DNA of 64,000 bases from a virus (Duplodnaviria; Caudoviricetes): positions 46,205-110,204 of the IMG/VR virus record IMGVR_UViG_3300020049_006862; one strand, 5' to 3'. The notes beneath the pieces were generated by a model. That model did no database searches and was not told where the DNA came from. It was given only the letters and a program-made list of their open reading frames with translations. Below are positions 24,840-57,805 of the stretch, piece by piece. A program made the translations under genes and the position numbers. Position 1 is the first letter of the stretch. Every line of letters begins with the position of its first letter.

Positions 24840-26705
24840 TTATCCTATTACTCAAACTGAGCCGTTATAAAAAACTTTACTTACAACAGCTCCTCCGCCG
24901 ACGGCAGTTGCGCCATAGGTCGGCGTTAAACTGTCGCTGACATAACACGTATCTCCCACAACAGCAGGCGTAGGAAGTGTCCCTACTGTATATCCTTGAA
25001 GTCTTACAACTCTTGTAGAAATAACATCAGAAGCAGTAAATGTGGTATTAGCACTATCGTCCGCAAGACGAGCGCTTAGGCCAGCTGAGACTCTTTTAAT
25101 GGCTGGAAAACTTGAGGTCGTCCCTCCAAATTGGAAAAGATTAAAGTCATTTCCAGCATTATTCATTACTGTAAAATTATTATTAGTTACCGATTGTAAC
25201 TGACTTTTACCTGATATCTCGAATCGAGTAGCAATTACAATACCAGAAAATGTACCTCCCGCAGCAGTTAAGTTTGCGTTAGCACTATCATCAGCTAAAC
25301 GCACTACTATACCTGTTCCACTTCTTTGAATAGAAGGAAAAGAAGATGTAGTTCCGCCGAATTGAAGGCGGTTAAAATCCGAAATTAAATGATCTGTTAT
25401 TAATAGTACCCCACTTGATGGAGCTTCTAAGACAGTGCTGTTTGACCACCTTAGTCGTGAAGTAATGCCTGCGGTAATACCGCCTGTAATTGTCATGCTT
25501 CCGGAACTATTCAAATTAAATCCTTCAGTCAAAGTGCCGTTTCGCATGAGGCTAAGACTATAAGTAGCATCTTCAGTAGCATCAACTGCATCTGACCAAG
25601 TTATTGACTGTGTACCAGCAACTCTGTTAGTACCTGAAGCATTCTCAAGCTCGTACTCTTGACCTACTCCAAATCCTACTGCTGCAGTGCCTGAAGTAAT
25701 ATGGGATAATCTTTGGGCAAAAGTAACTGCGTTAGTTACTGCGTCAGAAGCTTCTACATGGAATAGGCGATCTGGAGAGGTAGTCCCTGCTCCTACATTA
25801 CCATTTGCGGAGACTTTAAATCCAGACCCACCGCCTGAGTTTCCTGCAGCATAAAAAACTGATCCTATTCCTGTAGCTGCTGTTGCAACAATTAAACCTT
25901 GACCGCTTCCACTTGTATTGAATACACGTGTAAGATAGTCTGAAGCAACAGTTCCTGAAACATCAAGCTTGTGTGAAGGTGTAATGGCGCCAATTCCGAC
26001 AAAACCACTATTTAACACTGTCATTACTTGACCCGAATCAATACGACTTCCGCCAGTATTTCATGCCAAGTTAAAACTATTATCATCTGCGTTTAATCCT
26101 AGTGACCAGCCAATAGTTGTTTGATTATCTTGATTAAAAGCCATAAACAAATCTGCGCCAGAACCTCCTAAGGTATCTTTAAATTGTAGCATGGGCGAAT
26201 TACCCCCTCCAACAAGCGAAAGCTGTCTATCTGGTGTAGCAGTACCTATACCTAAACGATTAGTTGAATCGTTCCAGAAAAAGTTTGCGTTGTCTTGAGC
26301 GATAGTTGATCCATCAGAAAACAACACAGAGCCTGCTGTCAGTGCAGGGAGTGTAAATGTTCCTTTTGAATTTAGCTGTGTTTGAATATCAGACGTTACT
26401 CCATCTACATAGTTTAACTCAGTAGTAGAAAGTGTTGCCCCATCCAAAATGTTTAGTTCAGCAGCGCTGGCAGTAAGTCCCGTTATTGTATCCTGCTTAG
26501 CGTTCAGAGCTGTTTGTAAATCTGTTTGAGCTGAAAGGGTTCCTGTGATAGAACCCCATGTACCTCCGCCAGAAGAAGGAAGGGTGACGGTATTACCGTC
26601 AGTAATGGAGAGTTGATCCCCACTTATTTTTAGGTTCTGGATACAAGCATCATCAACTGTTTCGTAAACACCTGTTATTCCTTTACCATTTGAATTATAA
26701 ATCAT
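24840..26705 (-). CDS. Tail fibre protein (621 aa, code 4)
   Basis: Joined via TGA 26061; ends FYNGSV-W-VIG; typical fibre segments TWGSITGTLSAQTDL, ELNYVDGVTS, RLGIGTATP, GNVGAGTTSP. Confidence 0.8.
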
Positions 26706-27208
26706 TATATTAATATTTTACCATCTTTGTAGACGAGTATATCTTTATTCTCACCTATAAGATGAGTATCAGTACTTATTGTTTCGTAGTATAACCCATC
26801 AACTCATCCTTCAAGTTTCTTTTGAGAATCAATTTTAAAATCTACATCGGAAATTTTGTTTTTTCTTACCGCCCTTCTTTTCAGCGTTCTTACTTTCTCT
26901 GACGTGCTTGGATGAATTCATTCACCTTTAGAATAAGAACCTACTAATCAGATAGAACTTACTTGGGAATTATCCGCTATTATTTGTATAGCTTTTCTAA
27001 TTGTAACTTTAATTGATTCTGGCATCTTGCGTATCCTACAAAATCTGCTTCATAAAGCCATAGCCTCTGTGTCAGGAAGTACAATAACTCTTTTGTTATT
27101 ATATACTTCCTGATACTTAGCTATCATCCTTTTAAATCAAGGATAAAGATCCTCAATTATTGGCCCATTATATTTAGGGTATAATGTAAGAAATTTAGAG
27201 ACATCCAT
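26705..27208 (-). CDS. Pol-beta-superfamily (MNT-like) nucleotidyltransferase, absent from ORF track (167 aa)
   Basis: ATG 27208 to TAA 26705 fills the gap exactly (TAATG overlap with next gene); contains SIWLVGSYSKGEW...KISDVDFKI; all five Trp are TGA. Confidence 0.75.
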
Positions 27209-43700: not shown

Positions 43701-45818
43701 CGATAAGAAGGGCCCAATGTGTTAAGCCTAATGTACCAGTGATCGCAGTTACTTTACGATTGTTAACGTTTTCACGAGAGAAGAAGATATCCATCAGATA
43801 ATCTTTCAAGCGAGAAACAGTCAAAGCAGAATTGTAATATTCGCAATTATTATTATTCAGTTAGAGTCGTTAATTCTAACTCGGGAATGGTTACCCAGCT
43901 CATAGTTTCCTATGAGATTAGACTATATCATTTTCCTGTAGATGTTTATCTAAGGAAATTTCTCATTTCGAGTCACTTGACTCTACTCCCTTTCGGGATA
44001 GTCGTTGAAGGTTCCAATCATAAATTTTTTCTATATGCTTAAGAAAATCTTTAGGAGATTTAGTATACTTAGCTAGATTACAGTTTTGACAACAAGGTAC
44101 TACATTATCTTGTATGTATCCTAAATTGTTGTCAAGTCTATCTATTCCAGTATAATTATAGGTCATTAGTGATGTTCTAATACAGGTATTAGTTGGTTTA
44201 TCTCCACAGTATACACAAGAAGACGAAAACAATTTCGCTGCCTCCTCTAATGATAACGTAAATTCTAAACCTCTGTTTTTAGCACTTTTCCTATATCTAC
44301 AATATATAGTAGAATATTTTTCAGCACTGTTCATCTTTTGATCTCTTAAGAAGTCGTATCTACATTTTTGACATCCTGCAAAGCCTAGCTTTGCTAATGA
44401 CATACACGCTCTTGAAACAAAAGTAGTCGGGCCTTTAGCTGTATTTCCACAAGAACATTTTAGTATATATTGTCCTTTGTGACCTATTACAGTAAATTCA
44501 CCTATTTTAGTGCCTATTGGATATTTCATAATTTATTTTTTAGCTTCCCTGCTGATTGCCCCTATTTTTAGAATTGTTACAGTTTATTGTATCTAAAACT
44601 TAGCGGGGGGTCCCAGCAATTAGAGAAATTATTCGATTACTATTACTAGTAAAAGGGACCAAATATTAATCCAAGAATCTTTAAGTTGTTCGCGTACACC
44701 TGGCAGTGTGTTGTTCCCTTTCGTTCGTTAAACGAAAGGCGTACTATCCAACTTTAAATAGTACTGCCTTATATTACTATAAGGATCAGGTCATATCACC
44801 TTCCTATTAGGAAGTTTCCCGTTTCGGATTCACTTGAATCCTACGCCATAAAGGCTGACCGTCGAACGTTCCCTTTTCAGGGCTTCGCTGCTGATTGTCC
44901 TCTTCATAAGAAGTAGGAGATCCCAGACAATTAGAGAAATTTGCAATATTGTATTACTACAATATGGGGCCCAATTTGACCCGTTTTGATCCAGTAGCCT
45001 GACTGCGAAGGACGAGTTTGCTTGATACCTAACCAACCTTGATATTCCTGAGACATGTACATTTCAGAGTACATGCGAGATTCAGCCATAGGAAGGAAAG
45101 AGTTAACTTTCTTCATCTTCTGAGTGTGAGGATCAGTGTACAGGAATTCTACGCCCAATCGGCCGCCTTCTCTCCAAGCTTTGTCAGTGATCGTCAGTTT
45201 CTGAGCGAATTCACCAATTTGGCTTTCCAGTTTGAACAGGTTAGGAGATTGTTGTGTACCGAAGTATGGGTTAGCTTCTTGCTGAACAGAGGTCCATCCT
45301 TTAGAAAATTCACGACCTACTTCCAAAAGTGAAGGAGGGCAGAAAACTGTAGGATTGTCACCTTGCAGTTCGAGGGTGTAGATGTAACCTGTGCCATCTG
45401 GAACAGAATCACCGATGATAGCCATCGGGTAAGAGTTATCTTCACCAAGCAGAACATCTGGTTGTGCGTAATAGTCGATGTCCAATTTTACACGGAAACG
45501 TGTATTGTTTAAGCCCGGAGCGTCGTTGCCTGCTTCGAGATTCTCGAGAACAATAGCAATACGTTCTTCAGCTCCCTGCATAGTCCAGCGGAACACATCG
45601 CTGTTGATCATTTGAACATTGCCTGGGTTGATACCTTGAGCAGTCAGCAATTTACCTGTGAACAGGTCTGACTGAGAAGAATAAATTTTTGTGAGGGTGC
45701 CCATGAATTCATGCGGCTTGCCCGTGTCATAAGCAGCGCCAAGATAATTGGAGTCGATAAAATTACCCCCAAATCCTTGGTAGTGCTTGATAATCATGTT
45801 ACTTCTAGCGCTAGCCAT
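40706..45818 (-). CDS. Major capsid protein, six exons (489 aa spliced)
   Basis: Exons 45818-44979, 44703-44669, 43843-43725, 42929-42802, 41903-41580, 40729-40706 sum to 1470 nt, in frame: KTG|PGVREQLKDSWI|EYYN...GTLGS|IMFH...THY|YGPEG...TRCG|ELIYDFD*. Confidence 0.88.
40730..41579 (-). mobile_element. Group I intron 5 of MCP (850 nt)
   Basis: 5' exon ends in U, intron ends in G; P7 GCATA/TATGC; candidate internal guide AATTT-GCCTCAG lies near the 3' end of the ORF. Confidence 0.8.
40865..41551 (-). CDS. Intron-encoded HNH homing endonuclease
   Basis: CSCG, CSYCG, NGVDRIDSSKGY...NVAPSCKFCNRAK. Confidence 0.85.
   Translation of the reverse strand: MLKLKKQPKNFVESEMYNTTDYKEFIGLKYNELTVLSFPGYTLKKDKLKDYKIPVVEVKCSCGTIFKVQWDAVKNLKSKSCGHIHKFYYTDPYDCDVRGLYVRYRARAKKDNREFTITQDEFRSLIVSPCSYCGIKPSQIHRKTNCQASIPHNGVDRIDSSKGYVQGNVAPSCKFCNRAKSNSSLEEFNNYIIRLMKFASVKNRAKTVNGEIPNTVLSSEITKGSETV
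41904..42801 (-). mobile_element. Group I intron 4 of MCP (898 nt)
   Basis: P1 CACTAT/GTAGTG with U.G; TTGCTGGGA...CAATCAGCAG core; P7 GACTA/TAGTC; terminal G. Confidence 0.85.
41984..42664 (-). CDS. Intron-encoded LAGLIDADG homing endonuclease (226 aa, code 4)
   Basis: SMILGDG and LAI-W(TGA)-YMDDG motifs; second TGA near 42206; stop TAA inside the intron core. Confidence 0.85.
42930..43724 (-). mobile_element. Group I intron 3 of MCP (795 nt)
   Basis: P1 GGCT/GGCC; CTGCTGGGA...CAATCAGCAA core; P7 GATCA/TGATC; terminal G. Confidence 0.85.
42991..43617 (-). CDS. Intron-encoded HNH homing endonuclease (208 aa, code 4)
   Basis: N-terminal extension LGKLTI...GT-W(TGA)-EVQCSCG; CLYCG, NGVDRMDN, CCNVCNYMK. 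Confidence 0.85.
43844..44668 (-). mobile_element. Group I intron 2 of MCP (825 nt)
   Basis: P1 GGAT/GTCC; TTGCTGGGA...CAATCAGCAG core; P7 GACTA/TAGTC; terminal G. Confidence 0.85.
43918..44529 (-). CDS. Intron-encoded HNH homing endonuclease
   Basis: CSCG, CVYCG, GIDRLDNNLGY...NVVPCCQNCNLAK; ends at 43963 (TGA) or 43918 under code 4. Confidence 0.85.
44704..44978 (-). mobile_element. Group I intron 1 of MCP, ORF-less (275 nt)
   Basis: P1 GGGT/GCCC; TTGTCTGGGA...CAATCAGCAG core; P7 GGTCA/TGACC; terminal G. Confidence 0.85.
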
Positions 45819-49222: not shown

Positions 49223-52200
49223 CTATAAAAAATTGTCACTCGTTATACGAGCGTTCGGGAATACGAATTTATTAGCCGATATAAACTTGGTGATATCATC
49301 CACAATTTTACTATCTTCTATAATTGTTTTCTTGTATTGATTATGGGTTTCTATTAACCCTACAATACACCCCATGAATCCCATTATGGAGTCAAAGTTG
49401 CCTTCTAAATTAAAGGCAGCCATTTCTTGTAACAAGGCCCTGTCTCAGATAAAATCTATATTTCTATATGTTCTATCGTCCCTCTCAAACTTAACTTCAA
49501 GTAGCCAGTCGCGTATGTACTGAATGCCTTCCATCTTCATAACTCTAGAAGACATCGGATAACCATAAGTTACCGAAGGCCCGGTCATAAAAGATGCTTT
49601 CTTATTAAAGATAGTAGTAGGTTGTTTACAAAGCAAGTCTAACCTCTTTATCTTTTCGAAATACTCCTTCACGTTACCACGAACATTTTCGAAGTAGATC
49701 TTTGCGTTACCATAAAACAAAGAAAGCTTGTGAAGTATATCGTTCACTATATGCCTTCCCGCGTAGGGCCTACCTCTATATACTGCAACCAATTCAGCCG
49801 AGCCAATCGTAGAGGCGTACTTCTCCGTCTTAAGAACAAAGATAGTACCTAACGAAGAGCCTGAAGCATCATCACTTGCGTAAGGGTCATGCCCAATGAT
49901 ATAAGCTCCTGGAGGAACTTTACCGTCGATAACTTGAGGAAATTCGTAAACAACAACGCAACCTTCGCGGTTGTCAGTATTCTTGATAGGAAATGAGTTA
50001 ATCGGCTTAAGCTCGTTAGTAACATCTATCTTATAATCAACACCATTAGTGTCTTTTGCTTCTGGGTTAAAGAAGAGAGTAACTCTCTTCTCCATCAAGT
50101 TTAGAGAATCGGCGATATCAATCTGGTCAAGCCTTGCTCGTACTTCTGCTGTTGGAAATATATTACCTGAAGCAGAGAGAAACATTTCTGATGGAGTGAG
50201 AGGTCTGTTAATAATCTCAGCATCGAGTGCTACTGAAGCATTCTTTGCCTTCTTAAGTTTTGTTCTGTGAGCTTCCAAAAATCCCCTAGCAACTTCTACA
50301 TCAGTAAAGCCATTCTCATCTTTGAATTCATTCAAGCCAAGATAAGCAGGTACAAAGTACCCAATGGGGGAAGATCTCCATTCGTATAAATCGGGAAATT
50401 CTAAGCAATCGTAAGTCTCTGGATTGAAGAATATTTTTTGAGCGGCTAGGGTACCGCCCCCTGCCATATCCCCACCAGTTCCGATGAACATCATCGAACC
50501 AAACTTACGAGCACCATCTCTTTGAGTCTCTACGCAAGCTGCGTAAGTCTCTTCTAAGTTGTCAAAAAACCCTACCTCCTCAAACAGCAAAACCCCTGGT
50601 CGCGTACCATTGGCAGCGAAGGGGTTATCTTTGAAAGTTCTATTCTTAATAGTGGATTGAGAACCTACTCTTTTCCAAACTCCACCTACCTTTTTTGGAT
50701 AGTGAGCTTTTATTTCTTTACCTGGATCAAAAGATCCGGCCCATTTCTTTGCGAATGGTGCGGGGTAAGTTTTCTTTCCTATTTGACTAGTTCCCGGAAG
50801 GTTATCGAGAGCAATCTTAGTTTTTTGTAAAGTTTCTGAAGAGTATTTGGATTCGGCTGCACCGACTACTATTTCAGAAGTAAGAATAAATTCTGGATTT
50901 ATTTCGTATTTGACAGCTCCGTCAAATAGAAATTCGTGAGCGACTATACCAACACCAAGAGAATAAGATTTACCTAGCCGAAGCCCCTACTGTTCCCGGT
51001 CATCGTATAGTCTCTTAAACAATACGAATGATCTTGATCGGTTTCCACTCCATAATATGGAGCGTCAGTTGAGGCTTCGATTCTTAAACTTGATATTTTA
51101 TAATTCTTAACAGGATTAAAATCAGTTTTTTTCCTGTGAATTTGAACTGGTATCTTATTAATATCTCCAGATATTGTAATTGAATATTCTTTAGTGTTAT
51201 GTCTTTTACGATATTTAAAATTCGTATGAAACCCTAAAGAATTAGCTAATTCTTGAACTTGCTTAGCAAATCTTCCGTCTGCTTGATAAAATCTATATGC
51301 AGATATATCTAAAGTACCGTCAGTATCTAATAACCCTGCCAAAAGTTTCATTCTAACTTCTATCGAGTTGTTTAGGTATTCTTCAGGTATATGTTTATTG
51401 CCTAAAACTCTTAAACTTTTCAAAGAGTCAATAATATAATTCTTATCTTTTATAATATTTACTTTATAATTAGAAGAATTGGCATTTGACGAATAATTAT
51501 TCGAATACATAGATAATTTCCCCCCTATCTCATCTGCATATCTAGATAAGAAATACACAATTTCAATATCGGAAGTCGTAATAATCCTACTGTCTCTGTG
51601 CCCGTCTCCAAGCCATATACCTAAAAAATAAGGATCAAGAGGCACTTCTTGGTAAGGTAAGTCTACAGCATCTCTTTTAAATCCTTTATACCTGTTATTA
51701 AAGTGTTCAGTACATATACTGTTCTGTATCTCAAAGAGCTTCTCAGCTTTTATCTTTGTTCTTTTTCCTTTATCGAGAATTTCTAGCTCATGATCATGCG
51801 TAACGCTATAATCATCACCATTTGATTGACATACTCTATACATCCTAGCTTGTGGTCCACGAATTGTTCTTTTTACAATTCTAGGAACATCGTCTATACC
51901 CATTAATTCGTCCCCAATATTTATATCCTCAATGTTTTTGATACTGTTGTCGAACATGCGGACTTGAGTACCAATAGGATGACAGCCAAGCATCATCATG
52001 TTCTTGGCATCATTATTAAACAGAGGGTAACCAAGTGGCTGTTCTCTAAGCATCCGAAGATTTTCTCGAGCAGGAATATACCTTTTAAGTAATCCATTTT
52101 CAGGATTAATAGCATCAGGATATTCTTTAAGAACTGCTGCCGGGGGCTCAGTAATACCTAAGGCTTCCATCTCTTCTACGAAGCGCAAAGAGGTGAATTG

Positions 52201-52497
52201 GGTGTCTTCGGAAAACGACGAAAAGCCGCGAGCCTCGGCCCAATTGTAGAATAACTCCCACTCAAGGTCACGAAGATCCGGCTTTCCGAAGTACGGGCTA
52301 CGCCCGCGCTCTTTTCGTTTAATAGTTCCAAAATTAATATAGAAGTAAAGTTTACCCGGCATATATCTGCCGTGTGCCCAATGACCTTCTATACATCTCT
52401 TTTTTTGTTCCCGCCAAAAGGAAACAAAAGCAGGAGATAATGGATGATAGTTTGGTATGTCAACAATAAACTCACGAGGATTAATACTCGTAATCAT
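49223..52497 (-). CDS. terL: Terminase large subunit with intein, a frame break at Walker A, and one TGA
   Basis: N-terminal FWREQKKRCIEG / LYFYINFG; G|intein|SRGFG then TAG 50974; GKSY resumes in another frame; LFEEVG, IGTGG, IIGHDPY, YFEN, GNFD; TGA at 49445. Confidence 0.85.
50992..51984 (-). mobile_element. Intein with LAGLIDADG endonuclease (331 aa)
   Basis: Starts CHPIGT, has VTHDH block B, FLGIWLGDG and LLAGLLDTDG, ends TGN followed by Ser. Confidence 0.9.
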
Positions 52498-54100
52498 TAT
52501 TTTCTTCAACATATGGCGCTTCTCCAGAGGATATAATTCCATCTGTGAGCGCGATCATTGACGCTACTGAAGCAGCATTTTCCAAAGCTAATCGCAATAC
52601 CTTAGTAGGATCAATGACTCTACAGTCTTTAACATCTACATATTCCATTTTATTCACATCGAATAATTCGTTGTGAGTTTGGATGTGGTTACGAACTACT
52701 TCAGAGTTAACACCAGCATTAGCAAGTACGGTATTGAAAACACTTACAAGAGCTTTTTTAACACAATCAGCTCCAGCTTGTAAGACAGGTTCAACATCGA
52801 TAGCTGAAATAGCGTCGAGGTAAGAATACCCGCCGCCAATCGAAACACCTTCTGTAATTGCAGCTTTTGTTGCTTGCAGCGCATCGTCTACCCTATCTTT
52901 CTTTTCTTTTAGCTCTACTTCTGTATGAGCACCAAGGTTGATAACAGCAACTCCACCTGAAAGTTTTGCGATACGCTCAAGAAGTTTTTCTTGAACCCAT
53001 GCAAATTCGTTATGAGAAGCAGTTTCTAACTCAGCTTTCAAATTATCTAATCTCTTAGAAATAACTTCTTCAGCGCCTTTTCCACCGACAATACTCGTCT
53101 CGGAACGGCTTACTGAAACATTTGTTGCGCGGCCAAGATGTTTAAGTTCTACATCTTTAACTAACATTCCGGAATCCTCTGAAATCAAAGTTGCACCAGT
53201 CACGGCAGCGATGTCTTCTAACATTGACAATCGGCGATCACCTTGCGCTGGAGTTTTTACCGCACATATATTTAGACCCATTCGTACTTTATTGACTACC
53301 AGTAGGGAAAGTGCTTGCGCCTCTACTTCATCTGCTATAATTAGCATCTGACCTCCTGCCTGTACTACCTTTTCAACGATAGGCACAATTTCAGCTCCTA
53401 CGCGAAGTTTACGATCTGTTACGAAAATGTAAGGATTTTCTAGTTCGCATGTGAGCTTATCAAAATTATTTACGAAATGTGGAGATATCAATCCTCTGTC
53501 GAATGAATATCCTTTGGTTGTAGAAATATAATCTACAGTTCCTTTAGAATCTGCTACTGCTACCATGCCGGTAGTTCCTACTTCCTCCATTGCCTTACGA
53601 ATAAGCGCAGCAATAGCAGGATCGTTATTAGCAGATATATTTGCAATTTGTTCTACCTTGTCCATATCATTTCCGATAGAGGTAGAATTTGCTTTTAGAA
53701 ACTCGACCACTTGAGTTGTGGCGATGTCGATGCCTCTTTTTAAGTTAATGGGTGAGACTCCCATTTCAATTTGCTTTAGTGCGTTATCCAAAATCGCTTG
53801 AGCAAGAACTAAGGAAGTGGTTGTTCCATCTCCTACAGTTAATACAGTTCTAGCAGCAGCTTGAAGAGCCATTTGAGCTCCTAAGTTTTGTGCTGGATCT
53901 TTTAGCGAAATATGTTTAGCTACTGTTACGCCGTCTTTGGTCACATAAGGTGTGCCGAAAGAAGTGCGAAGTACTACGTTTCTTCCCTTTGGGCCTAAGG
54001 TAATCTTTACCATATTAGCCATCTGATCGACACCTTCTTTCAAAAGTTTGCGAGCAGCAGAAGAAGAATACAAGTTTGTTGCTTCTCTGATTGGTACCAT
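52481..54100 (-). CDS. groL: Phage chaperonin GroEL
   Basis: TLGPKGRNV, VTKDGVTVA, GDGTTT, ISANND, ERIAKLSGGVAVI, KKDRVDDAL, VIDP. Confidence 0.97.
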   Translation of the reverse strand: MVPIREATNLYSSSAARKLLKEGVDQMANMVKITLGPKGRNVVLRTSFGTPYVTKDGVTVAKHISLKDPAQNLGAQMALQAAARTVLTVGDGTTTSLVLAQAILDNALKQIEMGVSPINLKRGIDIATTQVVEFLKANSTSIGNDMDKVEQIANISANNDPAIAALIRKAMEEVGTTGMVAVADSKGTVDYISTTKGYSFDRGLISPHFVNNFDKLTCELENPYIFVTDRKLRVGAEIVPIVEKVVQAGGQMLIIADEVEAQALSLLVVNKVRMGLNICAVKTPAQGDRRLSMLEDIAAVTGATLISEDSGMLVKDVELKHLGRATNVSVSRSETSIVGGKGAEEVISKRLDNLKAELETASHNEFAWVQEKLLERIAKLSGGVAVINLGAHTEVELKEKKDRVDDALQATKAAITEGVSIGGGYSYLDAISAIDVEPVLQAGADCVKKALVSVFNTVLANAGVNSEVVRNHIQTHNELFDVNKMEYVDVKDCRVIDPTKVLRLALENAASVASMIALTDGIISSGEAPYVEENNDYEY

Positions 54101-54252: not shown

Positions 54253-54268
54253 TTAAAAATTAATTTAG

Positions 54269-54724
54269 TGGACATGAAGGGAGTTGAACCCTTGTATCTC
54301 ATATAATCTAATAATATATGTTTATAGGTTTAGGTCGAGAAGTATAGAGCAGGATTCGAACCTGCAGTCAGCATTTATCAAGGTGTTCCTACTATCCTTG
54401 TTTATGCACTGACGCCCTCGGTTATTAGGGCGTGTACACCATGTTCCACCTCCTATACTTCTACCACAATTTAAAAAAGGAGTGTACCGAAGCACACATC
54501 TCCACCACCCTATTTTGCTTAGAATAGGGAAACTAGCGTATGTATAATCAATCTATTTCTGTTTCGAGGTTAGACAACCCAAACTGTTCTCGAATAAGAG
54601 AACGAGTAAGACGAATACGAATATTTGCCGTTTGTTGTTCAATAGACATTGATAAGTCACTATACTATTATCGTGACACCTAAAATATATCCTCAACCAT
54701 ATAAGTCGATTCCATTACATGCCC
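54269..54724 (-). ncRNA. ssrA: tmRNA
   Basis: 5' GGGCATGTAATGGAATCGAC; 3' AAGGGTTCAACTCCCTT-CATGTCC-A; acceptor stem with G3.U; helix 2 CTTATAT/ATATGAG; pseudoknot GTCAC/GTGAC + GATAA/TTATC; candidate tag frame 54629-54570; CCA not encoded. Confidence 0.85.
54338..54462 (-). ncRNA. tRNA-like cloverleaf nested inside the tmRNA gene
   Basis: AGAA-GTATAGG/TCTATAC-TTCT stem, D arm GTG-GAACATGGTGTA-CAC, GCCCT/AGGGC arm with 8-nt loop, long variable arm, T arm GCAGG-TTCGAAT-CCTGC. Confidence 0.75.
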
Positions 54725-55121: not shown

Positions 55122-55223
55122 TGGCACGTCACATAGGAATCGAACCCATATAGTCTAGCGGTTGGAATGCTAGCGCGTACTGTTTTGAAGACAGTTCCCG
55201 TTCCGTAACGGTTAAAGTGACGT
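55122..55223 (-). tRNA. tRNA with UCA anticodon (opal decoder), long variable arm
   Basis: ACGTCAC/GTGACGT-G-CCA; ACTGT-CT-TCA-AA-ACAGT; T arm ATGGG-TTCGATT-CCTAT; D arm CCGTT-ACGG-AACGG. Confidence 0.9.
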
Positions 55224-55235
55224 ATTTTAATTGTC

Positions 55236-55295
55236 GGATTGAGGGAGTCGAACCCTTTATACTGCGCCTCCCGTTTATAGGGTAGCAATCAATCC
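55236..55295 (-). ncRNA. Truncated tRNA-like element
   Basis: GGATTG/CAATCC stem plus AGGG-TTCGACT-CCCT T arm and one central hairpin; no D arm, no CCA. Confidence 0.5.
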
Positions 55296-56672: not shown

Positions 56673-56987
56673 TTAGCCTTTGTTCTTCAGGATGTCGATA
56701 ATGCCTTTTACGAAATTGAACAATTTCGAAGCATTAGTAAGAGCCCACCAAAAAGTAATTTTAGTAGGGAATTCTAGCGTAGCCATCAATTCTGTGATCT
56801 CACGTACAATGGCTTGAATTTTTTCTTTAAGAGTCTCGTTCTCCGCTTTCAGAGAAGAGACTGTTTTAGTAAGATAAGTATTCTGTTCAGTTAGGAACAG
56901 AACTTTCTTCTGAGCCTGCGCAGCTTCCTGCTCAGCTCCTAATACCAAAGCATCAGGTGCTTTAGCTTTATTTTTGTTCTGACTCAT
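56673..56987 (-). CDS. Coiled-coil protein with amphipathic C-terminus (104 aa)
   Basis: Intact ORF coupled to neighbours. Confidence 0.55.
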   Translation of the reverse strand: MSQNKNKAKAPDALVLGAEQEAAQAQKKVLFLTEQNTYLTKTVSSLKAENETLKEKIQAIVREITELMATLEFPTKITFWWALTNASKLFNFVKGIIDILKNKG

Positions 56988-57363
56988 AGGTAACTAATTT
57001 TGCTTGAATTTGTGTTGGTGTTACAAGTACGTACCCTTCATGATCAGAATACGAGTTTTGTTTGTTGAGAAAAAATGCCTGTTCACGACCTTGATCTGTG
57101 ACAAGTACGAAATCTCCAATTTCTAGAGGCATAAATTCCTCTACTAAAGTTTTCGCAGATCGTTCAGATATCGCTACTATTTTGCCGATATTAGAGTATT
57201 CTCTATTTGAGAGAGGGGAGACAGGTCTACCTCCATCAGATACTCCGTTCTGATATTCAGGAATAATTAGTCCTCCGGCAGTTTTGGCAAGTGATAGCGG
57301 CTCCAATTTAAGAAGGATGCCACGCATCCCTAGAGGGATGTAATTATCTACTGTTAGTTGCAT
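56968..57363 (-). CDS. groS: GroES-like co-chaperonin (131 aa)
   Basis: PLG..ILLK, mobile-loop-like KTAGGLIIP, GKIVAI, LEIGDFVL; likely start MQLTV at 57363. Confidence 0.7.
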   Translation of the reverse strand: MQLTVDNYIPLGMRGILLKLEPLSLAKTAGGLIIPEYQNGVSDGGRPVSPLSNREYSNIGKIVAISERSAKTLVEEFMPLEIGDFVLVTDQGREQAFFLNKQNSYSDHEGYVLVTPTQIQAKLVTYESEQK

Positions 57364-57805
57364 ATTTAATACTTTTATACTTAGATAAGTGTTGAAAAAT
57401 ATGTTTCGGGATTTTTTTACTAGAAAGATCTTTTTGCGATCTTCTGTAAAAGTGAATCCACGCTTTGTGTCTGTTCTTAAATATGAACGAGACAAACCTC
57501 TTATGATCCTCAGAACCTAATCTGGCTTTTCTCAGAGCTTTTCTTATAAGAAAGAAGAATTTTCACGGAGATCTTATATGTATCCTACCTATTCTAGGTA
57601 AGTCTGCCGATAAGATTGAAAGATCTTCCATGCCCTCTCTAATTAGAGAGTAATGATGTTCAACGATAGAAGAGGCTAATTCCGGAGAAATGTTAAGCTT
57701 CTTTGCTATCTTCTGATATAGTTTCTTCTTCCTTACCTGGGTCGAACGAAAATACAAAAGAGAATGCTTTCTTGCTTTCATATGCTTGAGCGACTGAGTT
57801 TGCAA
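57344..57805 (-). CDS. HU/IHF-like DNA-binding protein (code 4, start uncertain)
   Basis: LYQKIAKKLNIS...LPRIGRIHI; continues through TGA 57563 to TAA 57344. Confidence 0.5.

Follow-up and report, generated by a model that had tools for sequence, protein, structure and literature searches.

Can a complete tRNA-shaped fold reside within a tmRNA gene of standard order, and, if so, where did it come from and what becomes of it in the transcript? The question is raised by the minus strand of a 64-kb stretch of phage DNA (the window; the right-hand 64 kb of a 110,204-nt IMG/VR record that CheckV estimates to be 66% complete), where a tmRNA gene at 54266-54724 contains, at 54338-54462, a 125-nt module with the shape of a tRNA. 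Judged by its sequence, the phage is crAss-like; its portal protein matches phrog_6547, its major head protein and large terminase subunit match PHROG families, and a Crass_capsid domain is present on the contig of a close relative. The distance from the tmRNA gene to the portal gene downstream of it is about 5 kb. The tmRNA gene is followed directly by a phage GroEL gene (52481-54100, minus strand), for which no relative above about 50% identity was found; its best matches are in cellular Bacteroidota, and the ~49% identity to chaperonins of Chitinophagaceae and Saprospiraceae is a hint that the host of the phage belongs to the Bacteroidota. There is also a weak GroES-like ORF at 56968-57495, and the RNA cassette is thus situated between GroEL and GroES-like ORFs.

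The sequence-only reading of this locus had made its case depend on the flanks of the module forming a tmRNA. They do, and the finding stands: cmscan detected a full-length tmRNA at 54266-54724 on the minus strand (RF00023; 49.2 bits, E 2e-16, model positions 1-374), above the gathering score of 47 bits. From this score, the tRNA-like domain, the tag frame, and a location like that in relatives, the gene is judged to be a standard-form tmRNA, with its parts in the standard (non-permuted) order over 459 nt, including 3 nt past the discriminator. ARAGORN, run with default settings, did not call a tmRNA gene at these positions. The acceptor stem of 7 bp (GGGCAUG/CAUGUCC) carries the G3-U70 alanine identity pair, the T arm is AAGGG-UUCAACU-CCCUU, and the long connector helix is also present in the Rfam alignment; by the same alignment the 3' part of the gene (54266-54337), the would-be acceptor piece, comprises the 3' strand of the connector helix, the T arm, and the 3' strand of the acceptor stem. 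The tmRNA ends in ACUA, i.e., CCA is not encoded, and CCA-less ends must therefore already be matured in this phage system; a search of the window for a CCA-adding enzyme gave only a sub-threshold nucleotidyltransferase hint at 26705-27208.

Directly 5' of the tag frame is a pseudoknot-1-like element (54641-54677), in which GUCAC/GUGAC is predicted to interlock with AAUAG/CUAUU. The tag frame (54570-54629), on our probable choice of frame, opens with the resume codon GGC and continues for about 18-19 codons (GKYSYSSYSFSYSRTVWVV) to a UAA; the resume context AAA-N-GGCAA is common to this tmRNA and to those of two related loci, L096 and L113. Further downstream in the RNA, and 10 nt upstream of the module, a cUUCGg hairpin is followed by a run of six U residues (54473-54497) and was picked up as a terminator-like site by a scan. 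It looks like an intrinsic terminator, as far as its sequence goes, or it could alternatively be the last structural element of the 5' part of the tmRNA. The 3' region of the L096 tmRNA also contains a hairpin and then a run of four U residues, and the element in the window may for that reason be structural rather than a terminator. A protein-coding reading of the region was dropped, the 57-codon ORF across the insert having no family match.

At one place the RF00023 alignment breaks down, leaving a 124-nt block unaligned where the model expects 55 pseudoknot positions, and it is here that the module (tmRNA nt 263-387) is found. Its sequence and predicted fold resolve it into the parts of a tRNA. 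The acceptor-like stem consists of 7 bp, in which GUAUAGG (54452-54458) pairs with UCUAUAC (54342-54348), and it is lengthened by four contiguous pairs between AGAA (54459-54462) and UUCU (54338-54341), with pair probabilities of 0.72-1.0. The closing stem is thus 11 bp without interruption (7+4), there is no free discriminator or CCA, and the 3' strand of the module continues through the paired UUCU into the tmRNA. After a 2-nt spacer, AG, comes a class II (Leu-type) D arm (54432-54449; GUG, a 12-nt loop with A14, A15 and G18G19, then CAC), whose 3-bp stem, length, and pattern equal those of a tRNA-Leu D arm, the nearest being that of a tRNA-Leu(UAA) at L027:4522-4608. The anticodon-like arm (54414-54431) has a 5-bp stem, GCCCU/AGGGC (pair probability 0.98-1.0), and a non-canonical 8-nt loop, AAUAACCG, without U33 and without purine 37. 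In the fold, the extra (variable) arm (54366-54413) is irregular and made up of an outer 5-bp stem (pair probability ~0.57), a weak 3-bp stem (~0.15), and an inner 5-bp stem (0.97-0.98) capped by a 12-nt loop. The T arm (54349-54365) is canonical, GCAGG-UUCGAAU-CCUGC with G53-C61, and is matched by phage tRNAs. A complete tRNA-shaped module nested in the tmRNA had been described from the letters alone, and its features were all recovered in place on the minus strand; the variable arm, put earlier at ~47 nt, measures 48 nt when the junction U is included.

All 37 of the proposed base pairs in the module are standard, with no mismatch. The top half is intact, retaining a 12-bp acceptor/T stack, the perfect T loop UUCGAAU, G53-C61, G18G19, A14, and an A15-U48 pair, and it is clearly tRNA-derived. 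On the 5' side of the module (54437-54454, minus strand), a perfect Shine-Dalgarno-like AGGAGGU is followed after 5 nt by AUG and a five-codon frame, MVYTP; this arrangement is probably due to chance.

The closing stem and the position of the module bear directly on its fate. A helix of 11 unbroken base pairs, with neither an unpaired discriminator nor CCA, would suit a module that stays within a one-piece tmRNA, held on an 11-bp stalk with a four-way junction in place of the last pseudoknots, and so would the placement of 124 nt exactly where the Rfam alignment is short of 55 model pseudoknot positions. Retained in this way, the module might contribute folding stability and spacing, or it might do nothing. 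We regard retention as a real possibility, if a rather doubtful one, and return to it with the evidence for excision.

The cloverleaf is more than a drawing that the sequence permits. The module folds with a z-score of -4.29, none of 200 shuffled sequences folding equally well, and its centroid structure is the cloverleaf; the energy of the latter is -40.2 kcal/mol vs. -42.8 for the minimum free-energy structure, and pair probabilities are 0.55-1.0 for most helices. When the module was scanned by itself, it aligned from end to end with the Rfam tRNA-Sec model at 16.8 bits (E 0.43 over 4227 families), a match that would be ~1e-4 for that one family and yet is far under the gathering score of 47; this was the better of the two tRNA models (RF00005 and RF01852), for both of which the module is far below threshold. 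At default settings ARAGORN called no tRNA here, and a call was obtained only when the extra arm was trimmed and the threshold lowered, giving a four-base "anticodon" UAAC. In hundreds of phage records, annotated tRNAs have T arms that match that of the module. When a covariance model was built from the insert as a single sequence (R1), its best non-self match was the genuine tRNA-Leu(UAA) of a related phage, in agreement with the Leu-type D arm.

The module thus has the 7-bp acceptor, the 5-bp T stem, the canonical T loop, and the G18G19 D loop of a class II tRNA, and it does not have a 7-nt anticodon loop with U33 and purine 37, nor a free 3' end with unpaired discriminator and CCA; only the last of these could change, and then only after excision. 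It is not, by these tests, a decoding tRNA. One might nonetheless see in it a decoder of an unusual kind, such as a four-base reader, because the 8-nt loop can be read as carrying the four-base anticodon UAAC and the phage recodes a stop codon and possesses a tRNA(UCA), or a decoy or mimic for host tRNA-binding factors, the elbow and the acceptor/T helix being tRNA-like. The same loop, without U33 and purine 37, speaks against the first of these, as do the scores far below threshold with the tRNA and tRNA-Sec models and a CCA end that is not free unless the module is excised. A decoy for host anticodon nucleases had been among the functions suggested earlier, and it is disfavored because the loop resembles no known substrate of such enzymes. 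Decoy and decoder together are, in our judgment, very improbable.

The recoding itself is a feature of the wider genome. Many large ORFs are open only when TGA is read as sense, and, on the evidence of the reading frames and the tRNA genes, TGA is a sense codon in this phage lineage, which has retained a UGA-reading tRNA beside its tmRNA gene. In the window, this is a long-armed tRNA with anticodon UCA and an encoded CCA (55122-55223, minus strand; Rfam tRNA-Sec 26 bits), and long-armed UCA tRNAs are also present in relatives (L010:1809-1902, L028:5361-5454, L044:4323-4420, L025:4436-4529, and L032:3368-3467), where ARAGORN names them "SeC(tca)". In the window phage and in several relatives the UCA tRNA is ~0.4-1.3 kb from the tmRNA gene, and the proximity of a UGA-reading tRNA to a ribosome-rescue RNA may be a functional pairing. 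The window also contains, at 55235-55295 (minus strand), a mini tRNA-like element of ~60 nt with an acceptor stem GGAUUGA/UCAAUCC and a T arm AGGG-UUCGACU-CCCU; its interior is short and lacks an anticodon arm, and it gives a weak RF00023 match at the T arm.

Whether the module belongs to tmRNAs of this lineage was examined through the portal protein, relatives of which are numerous at 41-66% identity. Thirty portal relatives were aligned (alignment A1), 80 IMG/VR loci and 43 metagenome loci were retrieved, and the whole IMG/VR records of relatives were scanned with RF00023. The tmRNAs so obtained are 249 nt in five records (identical sequences), 262 nt in two, and 388, 326, 307, and 237 nt in one record each; those whose position could be determined are 6-8.5 kb away from the portal gene downstream of them, vs. 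~5 kb in the window. The closest relative's tmRNA is the 326-nt RNA of L096, whose portal protein is 52% identical; common to it and the window tmRNA are the motif AUCGAC in the 5' domain, the resume context given above, and the 3' end GUCCACUA, and it is without the module. The window tmRNA minus its module would hence be a complete tmRNA by itself, and the arithmetic agrees with the earlier estimate that removal of the insert leaves a near-normal tmRNA of ~330 nt, 459 - 125 being 334 nt as against 326 nt in L096. Two degenerate tmRNA pattern scans found L096 again and added three larger phage tmRNAs of 422-448 nt; these owe their extra length to hairpins and pseudoknots of the ordinary kind and contain neither an internal T loop nor a nested tRNA. 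Overall, the module is absent from all 10 distinct related or similar phage tmRNAs (237-448 nt).

Searches for closer relatives that carry a tmRNA, using the tmRNA DNA against GenBank phages, a 24-mer from the 3' end, GroEL, and the portal protein alone, found none; the 66%-identical portal gene is on an 8-kb contig that ends before the RNA region. Permuted tmRNAs were considered for relatives without a standard tmRNA, and the idea was tested and dropped. Two further properties of the lineage were seen along the way. Some of its tmRNAs are very short (237-262 nt), with hardly any 3' pseudoknots, and the tmRNAs of L091-L096, L089, L112, and L113 encode unusually long tags of ~30-37 residues (e.g., DNSYADALIVPENSTSYVSQEVEILELVYA), several lineage tags ending in YA.

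These comparisons cut both ways for retention of the module. The spread in length from 237 to 448 nt arises mostly in the 3' pseudoknot region, which is where a retained module would add its own length; on the other side, a tRNA fold at this place occurs in no other tmRNA examined.

The module is a single metagenomic instance, carried by two records (110,204 and 109,924 nt) that come from one sample, and this common source is what would lend substance to an assembly artefact, in which the 125 nt are foreign to the tmRNA gene. Such an error would have needed two exact junctions that restore a complete tmRNA on each side, and those junctions would also have had to create, by chance, the 11-bp closing stem around a perfect cloverleaf; we consider it the least probable of all the explanations, and scarcely credible. 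No second copy or donor was found in the phage's own 110-kb record, and none in IMG/VR by an exact 24-mer. R1 likewise detected no second copy in the 1.3 Mb of 92 sources (the window plus 91 loci) or in five whole records. A blastn search of the insert against 50,697 phage records returned only T-arm matches to annotated tRNAs, and the 18-mer of the D arm had five chance matches in 185,579 GTDB genomes, all in coding regions. The insert is specific to this phage among all sequences reached. Its origin by local duplication was rejected, since the insert resembles the rest of the tmRNA, and L096, no more than expected by chance (948 and 664 of 1000 shuffles, respectively, do as well). A mobile tRNA-derived element, another of the earlier suggestions, found no support, for there was no other copy in the genome, the relatives, IMG/VR, the GenBank phages, or the GTDB pattern searches.

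A related idea is that a tRNA or tRNA-like gene, whether as a selfish element or through illegitimate recombination, came to lie in the tmRNA gene and is now a functionless and decaying passenger, tolerated because its site is permissive. Its absence from relatives and the degenerate anticodon loop would accord with such a history, and the genome is rich in selfish inserts, which include a group I intron at 44767-44988 (minus strand; RF00028, 61.8 bits), adjoining the major head protein ORF, and a Hint/LAGLIDADG intein-like insert in the terminase region (50974-52542, minus strand). Long neutral decay, however, is hard to reconcile with 37 standard pairs out of 37 and a perfect T loop; in addition, none of the searches produced a donor or sister copy, and the borders of the module show no target-site duplication. 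A passenger is accordingly thought unlikely, though less so than a decoy or an artefact.

If the module itself is unique, tRNA-topped RNAs in this lineage are not. After R1 had led to long tRNA-like genes in relatives, a motif search showed that related crAss-like phages encode free-standing tRNA-like RNAs of 93-127 nt (family R2), with seven complete members (L017:4761-4876, L028:4118-4229, L126:453-558, L051:4665-4767, L018:3616-3731, L145:4856-4982, and L152:4803-4895); a search with a model of the family added an eighth, truncated one (L016:1-71). The RNAs have a nearly invariant D region, two variable hairpins where a tRNA has its anticodon arm and variable arm, and a canonical T arm, and their closing stem is a constant 8 bp, with one pair beyond the 7-bp stem in all seven complete members. 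In an alignment (A7) of the five of these seven that align cleanly, compensatory changes were present in 12 of 21 pairs and 99% of cells were paired; neither value was reached by any of 500 shuffles. One member scanned alone matched no Rfam family. In L028, the R2 gene is 100 nt downstream of the tmRNA gene, and no member was found in the window's phage or in that of L096.

The likeness of this family to the insert extends to the acceptor stem, the 2-nt spacer, a D-like region with GG, a stem whose loop is not an anticodon loop, a second hairpin, and the canonical T arm. Membership of the insert in R2 was nevertheless rejected: complete members score 41-119 bits with the family model vs. 14.4 bits (E 2.4) for the insert, which is no better than ordinary tRNAs or tmRNA ends, the invariant D-region motif is absent, and the closing stem is 11 bp rather than the constant 8 bp. 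What the family does indicate is that non-decoding, tRNA-topped RNAs recur in this phage lineage.

What, then, happens to the module in the transcript? Excision and retention both fit the anatomy. Our preference, slight and tentative, is for excision over retention, i.e., that host RNase P and RNase Z remove the module and leave a two-piece tmRNA. An RNase P/Z processing signal was the first of three functions proposed from the sequence; it emerges as the best of the three, as a prediction from the anatomy of the module. The module would be a tRNA-derived element that has kept only the top half of a tRNA, namely the coaxial acceptor/T helix and the D-loop/T-loop elbow, the half that host tRNA end-processing enzymes read. 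The tmRNA gene would be transcribed as one RNA; RNase P would then cut 5' of G267 (window 54459|54458, a site predicted from the general RNase P rule), and RNase Z or another 3' enzyme would cut after the acceptor 3' strand (about 54341). The largest of the three predicted products is a coding piece of ~266 nt. It would contain pseudoknot 1 and the tag frame as well as the 5' strand of the acceptor stem and another folded element, and the stable cUUCGg hairpin (54497-54473) would lie close to its new 3' end. A tRNA-like RNA of ~118 nt would be set free, and ~72 nt would remain as the acceptor piece. Base pairing in the acceptor stem and in the long connector helix would keep the coding and acceptor pieces together, and the pair would function as known two-piece tmRNAs do. 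Cleavage at either site is what we infer from this anatomy, as are the persistence of the pieces and a possible role for the released RNA.

Several observations are in keeping with excision. The top half of the module is intact and its bottom half is degenerate (the 8-nt loop and the 48-nt arm), a pattern consistent with selection acting on recognition by processing enzymes rather than on decoding. The module lies in the 3' pseudoknot region beside the connector helix, where natural two-piece tmRNAs are discontinuous, and when the notional 266-nt and 72-nt pieces were co-folded, 38 intermolecular pairs were predicted at a net -17.7 kcal/mol. In described two-piece tmRNAs, the coding piece has PK1 and PK2 around the tag region and is joined by an acceptor piece (PMC3985003); the predicted 5' part, with its pseudoknot 1, tag frame, and further folded element, matches that coding piece. 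RNase P and tRNase Z are the probable maturation enzymes of permuted tmRNA precursors (PMC3985003), and tRNA-processing enzymes cut the permuted transcripts (PMC11915505). Efficient RNase P cleavage of human mascRNA requires an extended acceptor (leader-trailer) stem (PMC8457004). By analogy, the extended leader-trailer stem of the module may be compatible with cutting by RNase P.

For bacterial RNase P, pairing at positions -1 to -4 and 73 to 76 and the lack of CCA should slow cleavage. The module is paired at exactly those positions and has no CCA, and its excision is to that extent less likely to be efficient; as a single instance, moreover, it makes a weaker case for selection. Retention has difficulties of its own. 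RNase P would naturally act on a tRNA top half that is perfect and accessible, and a purely structural role would leave unexplained why the T loop, G18G19, and A14 were kept beside a lost anticodon loop. In favor of retention and against excision, an uncleaved insert would be tolerated as well, since the 3' pseudoknots are dispensable in vitro (PMC3985003) and the region varies in length (tmRNAs of 237-459 nt).

Set against known systems, the locus has no counterpart that we could find. A 2025 survey of 97,179 tmRNA sequences distinguishes three gene forms, i.e., standard, with a T-loop group I intron, and permuted, and reports as unique one tRNA-Ala gene in the intervening sequence of a permuted tmRNA gene (PMC11915505). 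A tRNA nested in a standard-order tmRNA gene is not among the forms described there, and no paper describing this layout was found, which bears out the earlier impression of an undescribed architecture. A published tmRNA pipeline rejects candidates that overlap a tRNA call (PMC11915505), and because ARAGORN also misses the gene, tmRNAs of this form may be routinely overlooked. That the gene represents a fourth form, in which host RNase P and RNase Z split a standard-order gene post-transcriptionally at an internal tRNA-shaped intervening sequence and one transcript yields both a functional two-piece tmRNA and a tRNA-like RNA that is free and does not decode, is a further step that we would take with more hesitation than excision itself.

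With the standard one-piece tmRNA (RF00023, phage examples included), the gene shares the G3-U70 domain, the connector helix, the pseudoknot before the tag, and the tag frame, but where the former has its last pseudoknots the latter has a complete tRNA cloverleaf. If the module is retained, a whole tRNA fold can replace 3' pseudoknots. The permuted two-piece tmRNAs of alpha- and beta-proteobacteria and cyanobacteria (RF04321, RF01849-51) would have the same mature layout if the module were excised, and the removal of their intervening sequence by tRNA-processing enzymes would then hold here too. In those genes, however, the acceptor piece is upstream of the coding piece, whereas here the order is standard, and the match to RF04321 is confined to the T arm, at 14.2 bits; moreover, their intervening sequence is between the CCA end and G1, whereas the module is in the pseudoknot region and its processing is a prediction. 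Gene permutation has been considered the only source of two-piece tmRNAs. Were excision true, there would be a second and simpler route to a split tmRNA, starting from a standard-order gene.

The tmRNA genes with a group I intron likewise contain an extra folded RNA element, but theirs is a self-splicing ribozyme in the T loop and not a tRNA fold in the pseudoknot region, and its removal re-ligates the RNA, whereas tRNA-type cleavage here would leave two pieces. Also tRNA-shaped, poor in the anticodon region, and embedded in a longer RNA are the mascRNA of MALAT1 and menRNA. These are eukaryotic and unrelated in sequence. They are located at the 3' end of the host RNA, and RNase P and RNase Z cut them, whereas cleavage of the present module is proposed and the module is nested between two halves of a tmRNA that have to remain together. 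If excision is true, processing signals of the mascRNA type would have a counterpart in bacteria or phages.
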